Shown one piece after another: positions 25,158-42,827 of a stretch of DNA of 64,000 nucleotides. The stretch covers positions 416,001-480,000 of the forward strand of contig CBDBLV010000004.1 of the NCBI GenBank assembly GCA_965207225.1, given 5' to 3'. Source of the stretch: Dehalococcoidia bacterium. GTDB taxonomy: Bacteria; Chloroflexota; Dehalococcoidia; Plut-88900. The translations under genes were made by a program, and so were the position numbers. The notes beneath the pieces are model-generated. The model did no database searches. It saw nothing but the letters and a program-made list of their open reading frames with translations, and was not told the DNA's origin. Numbering within the stretch: position 1 is the first letter of the stretch; each line of letters begins with the position of its first letter.

Positions 25158-26108
25158 TCAATTCTTCACCGGGACCCGAGGCAGACTCTCGTTAAGAAGT
25201 CGGATATGTTCGGGTCCGAGGCCGCAGCACCCCCCGATGAGCCGGGCCCCGGCCTCCACCCAGCCCCTCGCCGCCTCCAGGTAGTCATCCGGCGAGATTA
25301 TGGAGTCGAAGTTCCACTTGGGTCGGTCCCAGCTCCCGGAATGGGCATAGGCGCCAACGGACCCGTTCCACTTCTTTTTCATCACTTCCAGCGTGGGCCC
25401 TATGTGCTCAACCTCCGAGTGCATCACGATGGCCATGTCCCCGCCCAGCGCCATGACACTTTCCAGCATCTCCTCGAAGACTATTGCATCTCCTGTCGTA
25501 TATTCGCCCAGGGCCATGACGGGCTTGCCCGCCACCACCATACTGCTGAACCCCGACCATACGGGTATCCCGGTCTCCAAAGCCGCCTCGACTATCACGC
25601 TTGCCCGCTCCACGTCCCTGAGCATCTCCAGCAGGATCAGGTCCACCCCTTCCTCCGCCAATATCTGCGCCTGTTCCCGGTAGCTGTCCCTTAGCATGTC
25701 TAATGGTGGAGTCTCAAAGCCCGCAATCTCCGTATAGGCCCCGAAGGGTGATATCGACCCCGCCACCAGCACTGTCCTGCCTTCTGATGCCTCTTCAATG
25801 GCTTGCCTTGCCACCGACACGGCCATCGCATTTATCTCACGGGTAGCTTCCTCTTGCCCCGCGGTCTTCAGGCTGTGTCTTGCCGATGAGAAAGTGTTGG
25901 TCGTTATCACATCGGCCCCGGCGCGGATGTAGTCCTTGTGAACTTCCAGTAGGGTGTCGCTTCCGATCTTGCTCCCCAGCCCCGACCACACCAACTGGTC
26001 CATCACCACCCCACGCTTCTCGATCTCCGTGCTGATGGCGCCGTCCAGCAGTACCAGTTCACCCCCATCCATCCGCTCTTTCACAATGTCGTAAGCCGCA
26101 CTGGCCAT
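25158..26108 (-). CDS. Homocysteine S-methyltransferase family protein
   Basis: LLDGA, AGADVITTNTF and IGGCCG motifs; start placed at MASAAY. Confidence 0.9.
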   Translation of the reverse strand: MASAAYDIVKERMDGGELVLLDGAISTEIEKRGVVMDQLVWSGLGSKIGSDTLLEVHKDYIRAGADVITTNTFSSARHSLKTAGQEEATREINAMAVSVARQAIEEASEGRTVLVAGSISPFGAYTEIAGFETPPLDMLRDSYREQAQILAEEGVDLILLEMLRDVERASVIVEAALETGIPVWSGFSSMVVAGKPVMALGEYTTGDAIVFEEMLESVMALGGDMAIVMHSEVEHIGPTLEVMKKKWNGSVGAYAHSGSWDRPKWNFDSIISPDDYLEAARGWVEAGARLIGGCCGLGPEHIRLLNESLPRVPVKN

Positions 26109-26218
26109 TTGGCAATTCCCTCTCCGCAGAAAGATCCCACCCACGTACCACCCCTCAGCCCCGACAGTATATCCCACCCCCTCTCCTCCCACTCCGTCCA
26201 TAGCCCCCCGACCACTCC

Positions 26219-27090
26219 GTCATTCCCGACCCCGATCGGGAATCCATCCCCGGCGGGGCGGGGCCGAGTCCCCCTCCCTCGTAGGGGCAATCCCTCGTGG
26301 TCGCCCTGGGGTGGGGCCGCTCACCCTGAGCGACGAGTCGAAGAGCCTGCCCCTGCGAAGGCAGGGGGTTGAGCGGGGGTGGCCCGCGCCCCGCCAATAC
26401 GCCACCTCAGTGTTCGACCAGTCCACGCTCCTCACTGTCATTCCGATGCCCCGCGAGGAATTTAAGGCGTCTTTCCCTAAATCCACCTTGCCCCCTGAAA
26501 CCCGCCCGCCCCCGACCCCGATCAGGAAACCATCCCTTGGGGCGGGGCCGCTCATGCTGAGGCCCTCTTAAGCATGCCCCGAGTCCCTCGAGGGGTATGA
26601 GCGGGGGGAGGTCCACGTCTTGCCAAACCGTCGCGTCACCCTACATCCCACCCCGCAAAGAATCTACCGCCCCCTCCCCAAACCCACCCTTTCCTTGCCA
26701 CTCTCACCTCTTACTGGCATCCCCCCTTGGTAAGGAATTATCAGAAATGCTGCCAAGCAGCATTTCTGATAATTCCATAAAACAGGGCGGGTGGGTGGGA
26801 ACCGATTAAATCCTGGGGTGTGGGGAGGTGTACCCTTTCTTCCTCCCCCCAGTATTGAACTAGGGGGAGAGAGTGACCCTTCCCAGGCGGAGGGGCCGCT
26901 CATGCTGAGGCCCTCTTAAGCATGCCCCGAGTCCCTCCAGGGGTATGAGCCGGGGGAGGCCCACGCCTTGCCACTCCGTCGCATCCCTCCATAACCAACC
27001 ACCACCTTCTCCCCTGTCACCCCGAGGCCTCGCACGGAACCTGGGGTGGGGGCCGTCCCCTTCCGTCATTCCTGCGGAGGCAGGAATCCA
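26219..27090. repeat. Cluster of modular REP-like palindromic repeats
   Basis: GTCATTCC...GGAATCCA units at 26219 and 27065; GTAG-type unit at 26281; CCGCTCA...TGAGC units near 26317, 26548 and 26896; approx. 80-bp direct repeat 26544-26624 / 26892-26973. Confidence 0.8.
26734..26776. repeat. Perfect 20-bp inverted repeat
   Basis: GGAATTATCAGAAATGCTGC-CAA-GCAGCATTTCTGATAATTCC. Confidence 0.9.
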
Positions 27091-27165
27091 TTCCTCCTAA
27101 ATAGTCGCTTGCATCCCAGCAATCCCCCTCCATTCCTGTCCCCCCAAAACCACTCCAAATCACCC

Positions 27166-27193
27166 TTGACATCTATGACAATCGTGCTAAACT
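27166..27193 (+). promoter_or_regulatory. sigma70-like promoter with extended -10, upstream of the candidate ncRNA
   Basis: TTGACA-16 nt-TAAACT, with TG one base before the -10. Confidence 0.65.
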
Positions 27194-27320
27194 GTTTCGC
27201 AGTTCGAACTAATAATCTCGTTATCCAAGGAGGAACCAAAAACCCCAGGGAAGCCCCCGAGACGTCCGGGACGCCATCTCCTCACCTTCACGGATCCCGT
27301 GCCCCTTCCCTATCCATCCA

Positions 27321-27650
27321 GGCGATGGAAGGTCCACAACACTCTTACGGTGCACTCTCTTTGAAAGAGCATGCCGTCTGTGCGGATACCGCAAGAACCG
27401 CATCTACGCCACCGGCATTGACCTTGCCGGCGCGTCTGAAGGCCGCAACAGGCCTTGTTGGGAATCCCGTCCATAAGTCGGATTCCTCTGGCGTCTACCA
27501 CGACGACTCTGGCGGGCTTTGCCCGCTCTTTCGGTGGTTCAACCTCTATGGTGGACTGCCTGACCCGTTCACATACCCATAGACCCACCGAATATCCGCA
27601 GGGCAGGCATACCCGCCCCCTGAAAACCGAGTCCCGGACCTTCCATCGCC
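27321..27650 (+). ncRNA. Candidate large multi-hairpin structured RNA (family unknown)
   Basis: Perfect 15-bp closing stem enclosing about 9 hairpins; G-U pairs favour the + strand; no credible ORF; upstream promoter. Confidence 0.65.
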
Positions 27651-27711
27651 GACCCCCTCAAAAACAGACAAAACGAAACCCGAGACCCCACAACTCAATA
27701 AAGGCCCCTCG

Positions 27712-27740
27712 TTGACAACCGACCCTCCAAAAAGCATACT
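27712..27740 (+). promoter_or_regulatory. sigma70-like promoter of the LLM-comDE operon
   Basis: TTGACA-17 nt-CATACT. Confidence 0.65.
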
Positions 27741-27776
27741 CGCCGATGCACCCGGCCCCAGGGAAAGGAGAGAGTC

Positions 27777-28955
27777 ATGACGCTGCCCGCCCGCATGAGA
27801 TTCGGCATTTTCATGGCCCCCTTCCACTGGGCCGCCGAGAACCCGACCCTCTCCCTTGAGCGCGACATGGAGCTCCTCGAATGGCTCGACCAGCTGGGCT
27901 ATGACGAAGCCTGGATCGGCGAGCACCACAGTGGAGGTTGGGAAACCATCGCCTCCCCGGAGGTATTCATAGCCGCAGCGGCGCAGCGCACCAAGCACAT
28001 CAAGCTCGGGACCGGTGTCCTCAGCCTGCCCTACCACCACCCGCTTATGGTCGCCAACCGGATGATCCTGCTCGACCACATGACCCGAGGCCGTGTGATG
28101 ATGGGTGTCGGGCCCGGGGCCCTGGTCGGCGACGCCTTCATGCTCGGCATCGATCCGCCCCTCCAGCGCCAGCGCATGGACGAGGCCCTCAACATCATCC
28201 TGCGCCTCTGGACCGAGACCGAACCCATCACCTACGAAGCCGACTGGTTCACCCTCAAAGAGGCCACCGTTCACCTCCGCCCCTACACCCTCCCCCACAT
28301 CCCCATCGCCGTTGCCGCTTCTTACTCCCCGGCGGGAATGGTGTGCGCTGGGAAATACGGGCTTTCCGTGTTGTCGCTCAACACCATATCCGTCCCGGGC
28401 GCTGCCGCCCCCGATCTGGCCAAGTTCTGGGACATCGCCGAGGAGACCGCCGACAAGTACGGACAGACCGTCAGCCGGGACGACTGGGGCATCGTCATCC
28501 ACGTCCACCTCGCCGAGAGCCGCAAGGAGGCCATAGAGCAGGCCCGAGAAGCCTCAGGGCGGTACCAGAAGGAGTATTTCGAGGACACCCTTGGCCTCCC
28601 CAGGGCCTACGATGGCCCACAGGACAAGATCATCGACCACATGGTAGCAACCAACAACTGGTGTGTCGGCACCCCCGACGACCTGGTCGACACCATCCTC
28701 CGCCTCGAAGAGGAGTCTGGCGGCTTCGGCCGGCTCCTGATCCAGGCCACCGAGTGGGGAACCCGGGAGCAGGTCCTCCACAGCTACGAGCTCCTCGCCC
28801 GCTACGTCATGCCCCGCTTCCAGGGCTCAGTGACCAGCCTCCACGAGTCCCGGGAGTGGTCCGTAAAGAAGCGTGAAGAGCTCGTCGCCATGAATACCAA
28901 GGCCATGGACAAGGCCAAGGCCGACTACGTCAAGAGCGTAGCCTCGGGCCCCTAG
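27777..28955 (+). CDS. LLM-class flavin-dependent oxidoreductase
   Basis: GYDEAWIGEHHS and LGTGVLSLPYHHP motifs. Confidence 0.93.
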   Translation: MTLPARMRFGIFMAPFHWAAENPTLSLERDMELLEWLDQLGYDEAWIGEHHSGGWETIASPEVFIAAAAQRTKHIKLGTGVLSLPYHHPLMVANRMILLDHMTRGRVMMGVGPGALVGDAFMLGIDPPLQRQRMDEALNIILRLWTETEPITYEADWFTLKEATVHLRPYTLPHIPIAVAASYSPAGMVCAGKYGLSVLSLNTISVPGAAAPDLAKFWDIAEETADKYGQTVSRDDWGIVIHVHLAESRKEAIEQAREASGRYQKEYFEDTLGLPRAYDGPQDKIIDHMVATNNWCVGTPDDLVDTILRLEEESGGFGRLLIQATEWGTREQVLHSYELLARYVMPRFQGSVTSLHESREWSVKKREELVAMNTKAMDKAKADYVKSVASGP

Positions 28956-28994
28956 CCCCGACCCAACACCCAAGATTTCGGAGAATATACAAAC

Positions 28995-29504
28995 ATGCCT
29001 AACTGGGCCGAGACCATACTTGAAGAGCTAAAGAAGAAAGAGATATCCCTCATAGCCTTCGTCCCCGACATCAGCATAGACAGGGTCACCTCCTTGCTGG
29101 AGAACGACCCCTATTTCCACGTTATAGCTGCGACCAGGGAGGAAGAGGCCATCGGCATAGCCTGCGGCGCCTTTGCCGCGGGCCGCAACGCCGCCGTTTT
29201 CATGCAGTCCAGCGGATTCGGCAACTCCATCAACGCCATCACCAGCCTGTGCACCACCTGCCGGTTCCCCGTACCTATCTTCATAAACCTGCGGGGCGAG
29301 GTCGGGGAGTTCAACATCGCGCAGGTCCCCATGGGCCGGGCCACGAGGCCCATCCTGGATGTCCTGAACATCCCCTTCTATACCCTGGACACCGACCATA
29401 ATCTCGACAAGACGGTCGGCGGGGCCCTTAAGCTGTGCTACAGCAGCCGGGAGCCCGTGGCCCTCTGCATGACCCCCCTGCTCCACGGAGGAAAACTTGC
29501 TTAG
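28995..29504 (+). CDS. comD: Sulfopyruvate/phosphonopyruvate decarboxylase alpha subunit-like
   Basis: VPD, TREEEAIGIACG and MQSSGFGNSINA motifs. Confidence 0.8.
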   Translation: MPNWAETILEELKKKEISLIAFVPDISIDRVTSLLENDPYFHVIAATREEEAIGIACGAFAAGRNAAVFMQSSGFGNSINAITSLCTTCRFPVPIFINLRGEVGEFNIAQVPMGRATRPILDVLNIPFYTLDTDHNLDKTVGGALKLCYSSREPVALCMTPLLHGGKLA

Positions 29505-41414: not shown

Positions 41415-42683
41415 TGTATAGACCGGGGAGAAGGGTAACAGTTGTTCGGGGAGATAGGTAACACATTTCCTACTTACTTAGATCTATGGTAGCAATGGGT
41501 TGTACGGAGAAGAAGACTTTCCACGTGCCGTCTTTGGACCCGGGTCTAAGGGCGACACACTTTCTTCGGAAGGCTTTCCCCACCTTAAAGGTTCTGCCCT
41601 TGAACCATATGCGGCCGTTGACGTCGACCTTGCGCACCTGGTCATTGGTGTCGTACTCGATGGCAGGCAGGACCTCGGGGAAGGGCCGGGGGCTGGGGGT
41701 GTATCGGCTGGAGGGGGTATTGAGGTCCAGGGCATGGTGAGGACGCTGGAGGTTGTAGAAGTCTCTCCAGGTGTCGAAGCTGCCCTGGCAGTGGTGCAGG
41801 TCTGTGTAGATGCTTCCCTGGAGCAGTTCGCTCTTGAGGGACTTGTGGAAGCGTTCAAGCTTGCCGAGAGTCTGGGGGTGGTGGGGTCTGCTGTGGATCA
41901 CCCTGACTCCCAGTTGCAGCAACCAGACGGTCAAGGGCGTGAAGGGATGGTAGAGGTCGTGGCCCCAGGGGGCGCCGTTGTCTACCAGCATAGTGACGGG
42001 CATGCCGTAACGGCGGAATACAGAGGTGAGGTGGCCACGGACCGTGGGAGTCTTCTCATCTGGGCAAGCCCTTACAGCCAGGGAGAACCTGGAGTGATCA
42101 TCGAGGATCGTCAGAGGGTGACATCTTCCACCACTGGACATGGGTATATGTCCCTTGAAGTCCATCTGCCAAAGGTCGTTGGGCCGGGGGTGCTCAAAGC
42201 GGCGGTAGGGCTTGTGCTTGAGGCTCTGGGCCGGCTCTATAAGTCCATGTCGACTGAGGATGGCTGTGACGGTGCTCTTGGCCGGTACACCGCCGTACCC
42301 TCTGTCCTTGAGCATCTTGGCCAGCACATGACCCCCCTTGGTGGGGAACTCCCTTCGAAGGTCTATTACCAGTTGCTCCATATCGGCGCTGGTGCGGTTC
42401 GGCGAGTGATGGGGACACTTGGAAAGGTCTTCCAGACTCCCCTTACCCCCTTCCAGGTATCGTCTCAGCCACTTGTAGCCGGTCTTACGGCTGATCCCGC
42501 TGCGCAGACACAGCTCACTCATGTTCACACCCTCGGACTGGGCCAGGACCACAAACTCTTCCCGTTGAGACATGACCGTTCCAACCTTCCATGGCATAGA
42601 AACCCTCCTCTTACAGAATCGCTATGCCTAATGGTGTAACCTATGTCTCCGAACATGTGTAACCTATGTCCCCGGTCTATACA
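41415..42683 (-). mobile_element. IS481-family insertion sequence
   Basis: Terminal IRs TGTATAGACCGGGGA / TCCCCGGTCTATACA; 5-bp target duplication ATGGC at 41410-41414 and 42684-42688. Confidence 0.93.
41470..42597 (-). CDS. IS481-family DDE transposase
   Basis: HTH GISRKTGYKW; WQMDFKG, DDHSRF, DNG and GKLERFH motifs. Confidence 0.95.
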   Translation of the reverse strand: MPWKVGTVMSQREEFVVLAQSEGVNMSELCLRSGISRKTGYKWLRRYLEGGKGSLEDLSKCPHHSPNRTSADMEQLVIDLRREFPTKGGHVLAKMLKDRGYGGVPAKSTVTAILSRHGLIEPAQSLKHKPYRRFEHPRPNDLWQMDFKGHIPMSSGGRCHPLTILDDHSRFSLAVRACPDEKTPTVRGHLTSVFRRYGMPVTMLVDNGAPWGHDLYHPFTPLTVWLLQLGVRVIHSRPHHPQTLGKLERFHKSLKSELLQGSIYTDLHHCQGSFDTWRDFYNLQRPHHALDLNTPSSRYTPSPRPFPEVLPAIEYDTNDQVRKVDVNGRIWFKGRTFKVGKAFRRKCVALRPGSKDGTWKVFFSVQPIATIDLSK

Positions 42684-42773: not shown

Positions 42774-42827
42774 GTTCAATCAAACCAGCTACGAGTTCAA
42801 TCAACGTTTAATCAAAGTTCAATCAAA
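42774..42827. repeat. Phased GTTCAATCAA direct repeats
   Basis: Copies start at 42774, 42795, 42806 (one mismatch) and 42817. Confidence 0.75.

Follow-up and report, generated by a model that had tools for sequence, protein, structure and literature searches.

What is the large, wheel-shaped fold that lies between two genes of a sponge-associated Dehalococcoidia genome? Read from its letters, the region at 27200-27660 of the window (the whole 64,000-nucleotide stretch of DNA analysed here) had been taken for an undescribed stand-alone RNA gene: about nine hairpins inside a perfect 15-bp closing stem, with a promoter of their own. We found that the wheel belongs to a repeat family with about 43 members in this genome, of which it is a worn example. 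The locus being one of 43 dispersed copies, the idea of a stand-alone RNA gene does not hold. We consider it probable that what lies here is the decayed remnant of a mobile element, from a non-autonomous and genus-specific family that is MITE-like, carries a promoter and targets promoters.

The window locus and its copies

The closing stem is as perfect as the sequence-only reading had claimed: its 5′ arm, GGCGATGGAAGGTCC (27321-27335, + strand), is fully complementary to the 3′ arm (27636-27650, + strand), the two lying 300 nt apart. Between them lies a variable interior of type S4 (27336-27635, + strand) with eight conserved hairpins and one optional hairpin. The consensus fold of 10 S4 copies (RNAalifold) contains helices at approximately 27347-27377, 27380-27403, 27406-27435, 27439-27456, 27461-27486, 27490-27507, 27511-27527 and 27530-27592, so that eight of the nine hairpins originally counted stand; the ninth (27599-27622) is present in the single-sequence fold but deleted in 6 of the 10 S4 copies. 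The short (U)CU linkers noticed between hairpins are likewise conserved, as TCT, within the S4 interior type but not family-wide. Upstream, the smaller GGGAAG...CTTCCC domain does fold (27247-27311, + strand; −19.6 kcal/mol, z −1.37). It is closed by AGGGAAG/CUUCCCU, contains an inner hairpin, CACGG-AUC-CCGUG, and is conserved in module B of 43 copies; other copies have an insertion of variable length in this domain.

Taken as a whole, 27195-27665 folds on the + strand at −166.7 kcal/mol. In the comparison with dinucleotide shuffles that the sequence-only reading had proposed, this corresponds to z −4.48, with 0 of 100 shuffles as low, compared to z −2.31 on the − strand. The fold also proved absent from Rfam, as that reading expected. 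Rfam 15 gave no match at gathering score in the whole 64-kb window, nothing but sub-threshold noise at the locus with E up to 10, and only noise below the gathering threshold for 8 other copies; for the window, the locus and these copies, a known RNA family is thus ruled out. One contig of run X1 spans 27312-27641 with 0 differences, and in four runs (contigs of unknown kind) contig depth is single-copy-like over the interior and at repeat level over the modules.

A blast search with the 551-nt locus gave 97 matches in the window genome. Counted by module, there are 38 matches to module A (promoter and leader), 43 to module B (5′ domain and 5′ arm), 34 to module C (3′ arm and tail) and only 2 to the interior. 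Both arms are found in order in 43 elements, with 199-539 nt between them. The interiors of 32 of these 43 belong to four types, S1 (14), S2 (11), S3 (5) and S4 (2, the type of the window copy); with the further types S5 and S6 there are at least six in all. Full copies of S4 number only 10, in 3 genomes. The outer 9-10 bp of the closing stem are invariant in all 43 copies, 22 of which have 15 uninterrupted pairs, and the inner part of the stem varies by interior type on both arms (GGTCC/GGACC vs GACGC/GCGTC). The closing stem was considered as the terminal repeat of a mobile unit and rejected, because conservation continues past it for about 170 nt on the upstream side and about 50-90 nt on the downstream side, and the true ends are found beyond it. 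The window copy measures about 0.55 kb (551-560 nt) and is G+C-rich like the genome; intact copies measure 736-882 bp.

A promoter of the form TTGACA (≤1 mismatch)-N16-18-TAnnnT is found at the same place in 36 of the 43 copies, the strict pattern having a background of 641 matches genome-wide. Three types of promoter module combine mosaically with the interiors, and a second consensus promoter lies between element and gene in 12 of the 43 copies. As judged with a crude, purpose-made gene caller, 39 of 42 copies are followed by a gene that reads in their own direction; on the upstream side, the neighbouring gene reads against the copy in 25 cases and with it in 18. Modules A, B and C recur with 77-97% identity (over 36-109 nt) in front of different genes, which look unrelated in function (by eye from their N-termini, with Pfam used only for the window's gene). 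Given downstream genes of unrelated function and interiors that replace one another at a single locus (see below), a metabolite riboswitch or T-box-like leader was ruled out.

Only two promoter-like sites lie within 26000-29200, and a promoter scan confirmed both of those reported from the sequence. The element promoter, TTGACA-16-TAAACT (27166-27193, + strand), is of sigma-70 type, scores 10/12, has a TG before the −10 box and belongs to module type Pb. The other, TTGACA-17-CATACT (27712-27740, + strand), is a host promoter outside the element; it belongs to a luciferase-like monooxygenase gene (27777-28955; Pfam PF00296, 165.5 bits), and the divergent upstream gene encodes a homocysteine S-methyltransferase. 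Just 5′ of the element's −35 box is a degenerate left-end region (GTCCCCCCAAAACC...ATCACCC; 27137-27165, + strand) where conservation among copies begins; it is homologous to the stretch between left terminal repeat and −35 box in intact copies of sister genomes. Downstream of the promoter follows the most conserved block, the module A core (27227-27263, + strand; 95-97% identical in many copies), which consists of AAGGAGGAA, then a C/A-rich run, then the 5′ strand of the first domain. No ATG, GTG or TTG start codon follows AAGGAGGAA within normal spacing.

Beyond the closing stem, module C ends in a C/A-rich, G-poor, unstructured tail (27651-27700, + strand; fold −1.0 kcal/mol, z +1.2), which is truncated in the window copy and abuts the −35 box of the monooxygenase promoter at 27712. 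Over the 43 copies, 60-nt tails are composed of C 40%, A 39%, G 13% and T 8%, compared to 30/20/30/20 in the genome. No intrinsic terminator was found 3′ of the window element. A terminator flagged by the scan on the − strand of module A was dismissed, being no better than shuffles (z −0.12), and terminator-like sites show no enrichment (2 vs 2.4).

While the sequence-only reading saw no credible ORF, an open frame does exist in the window copy (27046-27582, or 85 aa from an ATG at 27325). This frame is not conserved among copies: in the commonest interior type a TAA comes only 6 codons after the stem ATG, and 1-nt and 4-nt indels separate aligned S4 copies. The early TAA and the indels also rule out a protein gene or a leader peptide starting at the stem ATG. 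With no conserved open frame, the element has no transposase gene and is non-autonomous, as MITEs are. Six copies with S6 interiors have no module A (G000, the window genome: C3:167682, C3:256155, C5:1331072, C5:1737118, C5:1005079 and C5:1190352). They carry AAGGAG, a 6-nt spacer and an ATG that opens an Arg-rich frame into the 5′ arm, and this frame is broken by a 1-nt indel between the two S6 subtypes.

By blast, the family is found in all 8 sister genomes of the genus (G001 to G008) and in none of 3 other genera of the same taxonomic family or 29 other families. Thus the homologs anticipated in Dehalococcoidia do exist, but none was found outside the genus. A 22-nt pattern scan (one genome per species) returned at least 80 loci; among the 80 listed, 78 are in records named 'MAG: Dehalococcoidia bacterium' and 2 are chance matches. 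When 151 genomes of the class were searched with a covariance model of 125 conserved positions, every match fell within the genus. The family is therefore modular, noncoding, genus-restricted and hairpin-rich.

Other repeats are also found in the window. One of them, the small hairpin repeat GTCATTCC...GGAATC, is found 146 times in the genome and occurs in the window at 26219 and 27065 (27064-27092); in each of the four runs, summed contig depth peaks by a wide margin in the bin 27007-27107. The repeats CCCAGTAYTGAACTAGAGG (window 40049; 45 genome copies), GGGGGTGAGGGTTCC (window 40177; 75 genome copies) and TTCAATCAA (runs at window 42775-42818; 150 in the genome) are often located just upstream or downstream of elements.

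Element ends and host −35 boxes

The junctions of the element were read by eye from filled and empty sites and then tested by counts. Comparison of filled with empty sites revealed conserved outer ends and flanking direct repeats. Intact copies in five sister genomes (G001, G002, G003, G004 and G006) start with TGATCCCGTTCACATAGAGGAGTGACA and finish with TGTCACTAA.CTACCGAACGAGTACA. The ends are thus TG...CA and form imperfect inverted repeats with the blocks CGTTC and AGTGACA; when aligned by eye, the terminal repeats are alike at only about 15 of 25 positions.

We counted matches to a right-end pattern (GTGTCACTAA.CTACCGAACGAGTACA) and a left-end pattern (TCCCGTTCACATAGAGGAGTGACAT) in each genome. 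Right and left ends number 22 and 16 in G002, 22 and 7 in G006, 22 and 15 in G003, 12 and 1 in G001, and 4 and 3 in G004. Counts fall to 2 and 1 in G008, 2 and 0 in G007, 1 and 0 in the window genome and 0 and 0 in G005; the reversed control pattern gave 0 matches per genome for either end. Paired left and right ends are separated by 736-882 nt. Of 20 intact elements, 13 are flanked by an exact repeat of 5 nt or more and 10 by one of 6 nt or more, compared to 15% and 3.7%, respectively, of mismatched left/right pairs.

Intact copies therefore have the terminal repeats of a MITE, while the window copy has lost its right end and keeps a degenerate left one. Its orthologs in G003, G006 and G002 show the missing right terminal repeat, ...GGTGTGTCACTAA.CTACCGAACGAGTACA, and the canonical left end, TGATCCCGTTCAC..., has 0 matches in the window's own genome. 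The window copy is decayed and probably immobile. As intact ends are nearly absent from the window genome and its closest kin, such as G005, the evidence for mobility comes from sister genomes and not from the window's lineage, in which occupancy is stable at 22 of 29 syntenic sites. The sequence-only reading had itself held that scattered copies with target duplications, as in a MITE, would speak against an RNA gene, and this is what we observe: the copies are scattered over this genome, and intact ones in its relatives have terminal inverted repeats and 5-bp duplications.

We looked for an autonomous partner at 30 rve loci (out of about 90 matches listed across 5 genomes) and found no matching ends nearby. 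A single long copy, of 2.07 kb, contains a nested, unrelated IS. A 4.2-kb stretch between facing ends in G002 was rejected as a candidate: it holds host genes (CoA-transferases and a hydrolase) and no transposase.

Next to the right end, a target emerges. In 27 non-redundant right flanks, the first five bases past the end vary, and positions +6 to +10 read TTGAC (T in 25, T in 19, G in 20, A in 15 and C in 16). A full promoter pattern begins exactly at +6 in 14 of the 27 flanks, and in several more by eye. The flank past TTGAC differs at each locus and empty sites keep the promoter, so the targeted promoter is the host's and not the element's. In the window genome, the two copies that retain a right end follow the same spacing. 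Intact copies thus have their right end 5 bp upstream of a host TTGAC (−35) box, in the same orientation as the host promoter. That 39 of 42 copies point in the direction of the downstream gene is explained by insertion beside −35 boxes in this one orientation.

A separate IS of 1311 bp was observed in the sister genomes (L220:138-1450 in G002; L223-L235). It encodes an rve (integrase core) transposase of 423-438 aa and has inverted ends of its own, unlike the element's ends. Near-identical full copies number 11 in G006, 1 in G002 and 1 in G001; G006 has a further copy with a frameshift, and G001 a fragment. Of 12 copies examined, 11 have a 5-bp duplication and are located exactly 5 bp upstream of a TTGAC, which in most cases is the −35 box of the elements' own promoters.

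Orthologous loci reveal gain, loss and swapping of interiors. The monooxygenase gene is present in all 9 genomes of the genus; an element is found at the locus in 7 and the site is empty in 2. The interior is S4 in the window genome, S1 in G008 and G007, S5-like in G005 and S3-like in G003, G006 and G002. In G004 and G001 the element is absent and the divergent methyltransferase gene, which is orthologous (77% identity over 323 aa), lies directly upstream. The spacer between the two genes is about 1668 nt here (26108-27776) and about 143 nt in G004, the difference being the element plus other repeats. The proximal promoter of the monooxygenase gene, TTGACAACCG...GCATACTCGCC, is kept in all 9 genomes, including the two that are element-free. 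In 29 syntenic comparisons, 22 sites filled in this genome are accompanied by 7 (6 loci) that are empty, and elements of relatives map to sites with another element type in this genome.

Two further rearrangements were noticed. X8 and X9 contigs join 26980 to 27164 with 34 other letters, and the G008 ortholog has the identical 34; the 183-nt stretch 26981-27163, which includes the small hairpin repeat GTCATTCC...GGAATC, is thus an insertion or replacement specific to this lineage. For one G008 copy (L018/L034), the upstream flank corresponds to window 41501-42300 (80%) and the downstream flank to contig C5 by another copy. This break in synteny suggests rearrangement through recombination between copies.

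Constraint on the structure and its strand

Next, we considered whether the fold is maintained. The S4 set consists of 10 copies in two clades, and its covariation rests mostly on one inter-clade split. The S4 consensus has 87 pairs, with 99.2% of cells paired compared to 98.3 ± 0.2 in shuffles (0 of 500 as high). Cells with a double change number 14 compared to 6.0 ± 1.8 (again 0 of 500 as high), while the number of pairs with a double change (4) is equalled by 263 of 500 shuffles. Covariation in this set thus exceeds the shuffles by cells but not by pairs. When partners are slid, pairing falls to 29-50% and the double changes vanish. In a comparison of the window copy with G007b, differences affect 14 of 174 paired columns and 26 of 130 unpaired ones, and all 10 changed pairs stay paired, 4 by double change and 6 via G-U, with the structure here derived from the same alignment.

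In the S1 set (36 of 39 unique copies; the partial copies L081, L079 and L086 were left out), loops are conserved as well as stems, and 3 pairs show a double change. By eye, the first two-tier hairpin (CGGCA...UGCCG round a small variable hairpin) recurs across interior types with its sequence changed. Given that hairpins are kept by compensatory changes, with cells and not pairs exceeding shuffles, the structure is probably under selection.

G-U pairs had been thought to set the orientation of the structure, a claim that our strand tests do not bear out, being equivocal. Of the 87 S4 consensus pairs, 63 lie in helices predicted on both strands. In such helices, G-U pairs outnumber A-C pairs slightly (5 vs 2 in S4; 9 vs 6 in S1). 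In single-sequence folds, one-sided changes are kept:broken at 11:11 and 10:10 on the + strand and at 15:24 and 8:19 on the − strand, and the S1 alignment folds slightly better on the − strand (−98.5 vs −92.6). Based on these counts and folds, the strand of the selected structure is ambiguous.

Interpretation of the element family

According to the reading that we consider probable, an intact element would run from the left terminal repeat, TGATCCCGTTCAC..., through an inward sigma-70 promoter and a 5′ domain with the Shine-Dalgarno-like AAGGAGGAA, to the closing stem round its variable interior, the C/A-rich tail and the right terminal repeat ...CCGAACGAGTACA-3′. A putative trans-acting transposase would insert it with a 5-bp duplication, the right end 5 bp from TTGAC, and the inserted element would then read in the same direction as the targeted host promoter. 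After insertion, modules are exchanged by recombination between copies, as the differing interiors at orthologous loci and the mosaic promoter modules show, and ends are lost, those of the window copy included.

The element promoter (27166-27193) would transcribe the + strand into a structured, untranslated RNA whose hairpins are under selection. The tail, unstructured and composed of 40% C but only 13% G, is a candidate loading site for Rho, a factor that this genome encodes, and may end the transcript before the host promoter. The RNA body would thereby act as a built-in insulator or as a leader, rather than in trans, and AAGGAGGAA would by analogy be a candidate stabiliser through ribosome binding. 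Between these two roles, a leader may be favoured over insulation because 31 of the 43 copies have no other consensus promoter, so that the element's may be the main promoter of the gene.

One extension of this reading, which we offer as a tentative possibility, is promoter-homing transposition, a mode of movement not described before, in this genus. Both the 0.8-kb element and the 1311-bp rve IS would insert in one orientation, with 5-bp duplications, 5 bp upstream of −35 hexamers, and the choice of target might read the −35 box itself, or else a sigma factor or RNA polymerase that occupies it. In this scenario the structured RNA that the element transcribes from itself, together with its Rho-loading-like tail, would serve as an insulator or a transposition cofactor that makes it tolerable to stack a second promoter on that of the host.

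The same observations can be arranged differently. The element could be a domesticated, cis-acting leader cassette whose promoter and structured 5′ leader drive or tune the downstream gene, with positions kept at 22 of 29 syntenic loci, promoter and modules conserved despite lost transposon ends, and no intrinsic terminator found 3′ of the element. The 39 of 42 co-oriented copies and the 31 of 43 without another consensus promoter before the gene would fit as well, but co-orientation is already accounted for by oriented insertion adjacent to −35 boxes. Moreover, the downstream genes are unrelated in function (from N-termini, and Pfam for the window's gene only), the interior is not bound to its gene (S4, S1, S5-like and S3-like at one locus), and all 9 genomes retain the promoter that belongs to the monooxygenase gene itself, 2 of them without an element. 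We therefore think domestication rather unlikely, and hold with similar reserve its more specific form, in which AAGGAGGAA would stabilise through ribosome binding and the structure would guard against decay from the 5′ end.

The hairpins might instead matter at the level of DNA only, in transposition, for a DNA-binding protein or as nested palindromic repeats, with the RNA a by-product. That 63 of 87 pairs are predicted on both strands, that the strand tests are equivocal and that the genome is full of other small hairpin repeats (such as the 146 copies of GTCATTCC...GGAATC) would agree with this. Against it, the + strand beats the − strand when compared with shuffles (z −4.48 vs −2.31), the conserved promoter reads the + strand, and six one-sided changes between S4 clades are kept as G-U on the + strand (with the structure taken from the same alignment); we judge a purely DNA-level role improbable. 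Stand-alone RNAs acting in trans as scaffold, sponge or precursor of small hairpins, encoded in many gene copies, are in our estimate very improbable. They would account for an own promoter, the z-score of −4.48, pairing conserved with compensatory changes, S1 loops conserved as well as stems and the lack of an Rfam match. However, terminal repeats, target duplications and empty sites are marks of a mobile element, interiors of very different sequence and length (199-539 nt) are interchangeable, no terminator or defined 3′ end was found, and the family is confined to one genus with its last hairpin dispensable.

A mobile, MITE-like element, the reading we prefer, has relatives among known systems. 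Mu, Tn7-like and Tn5053-like transposons make 5-bp duplications, have TG...CA termini and insert at a fixed distance and orientation from a recognised feature. The family is alike in duplication, termini and oriented targeting, a likeness that may serve as a lead, but no such transposase or target-selector gene is tied to it. BOX and BIME are mosaic intergenic repeats of interchangeable modules, rich in hairpins and evolving in concert. While these measure tens to about 200 bp and do not have the promoter-plus-tail layout, the present family swaps interiors of 200-540 nt between conserved ends. REPINs, named in PMC3575422, are repeats of the same kind.

The MITE sections of a review of such elements (PMC10969869) describe them as typically <500 bp and AT-rich (204 bp for the Correia element), with terminal inverted repeats of about 4-30 bp and target duplications in young copies. 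Like the Correia elements of Neisseria (CREE/NEMIS), MITEAba12, BrickBuilt and QMITE1 as presented in those sections (PMC10969869), the family is multi-copy, intergenic and non-autonomous and has terminal inverted repeats and target duplications. The same sections ascribe sigma-70-like promoters, often just upstream of genes, and transcripts with stable stem-loops to Correia-type MITEs (PMC10969869), which our family resembles in this respect, with stem-loops that are predicted. It differs from them in being 736-882 bp when intact, G+C-rich and modular, with interchangeable multi-hairpin interiors (PMC10969869, same sections). The main difference is in the choice of target: instead of a simple short motif, the family takes sites with a constant spacing of 5 bp to the −35 hexamer and a single orientation. 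As its size and G+C content go beyond the MITE norm given there (PMC10969869), we describe the family as MITE-like, oversized.

Putative mobile promoters, the class of Matus-Garcia, Nijveen and van Passel (commentary PMC3575422), are recognised by an identity of at least 80% across 50 nt or more between positions −150 and −50; most have no Rfam match and their means of movement is unknown. Similar promoter-bearing sequences upstream of unrelated genes in one genome are found in our family too (PMC3575422). Its modules reach that identity, whereas their positions relative to start codons differ from −150 to −50. Putative mobile promoters are defined by similarity only (PMC3575422), while the family has ends, a 5-bp duplication, a target and a large structured body. 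In the parts of the literature consulted we found no description of this element or of such repeats in Dehalococcoidia, nor any case of insertion at a set distance from −35 boxes.

For annotation, this means that the approximately 43 loci per genome are not to be called independent ncRNA genes. A supposed orphan RNA gene becomes a family of elements whose insertion follows a rule that can be tested, namely co-oriented placement 5 bp upstream of TTGAC and duplication of 5 bp. MITEs that carry promoters are already known; that this family and a separate IS both land at a fixed distance from the −35 box would be unusual. The family also provides a natural case of a large, conserved (predicted) RNA fold riding on mobile DNA, and it accounts for much of the repeat-rich, expanded intergenic DNA of these sponge-associated Dehalococcoidia. 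If true, insertion directed to −35 boxes would show a route to the stacking of promoters and to genome-wide rewiring.
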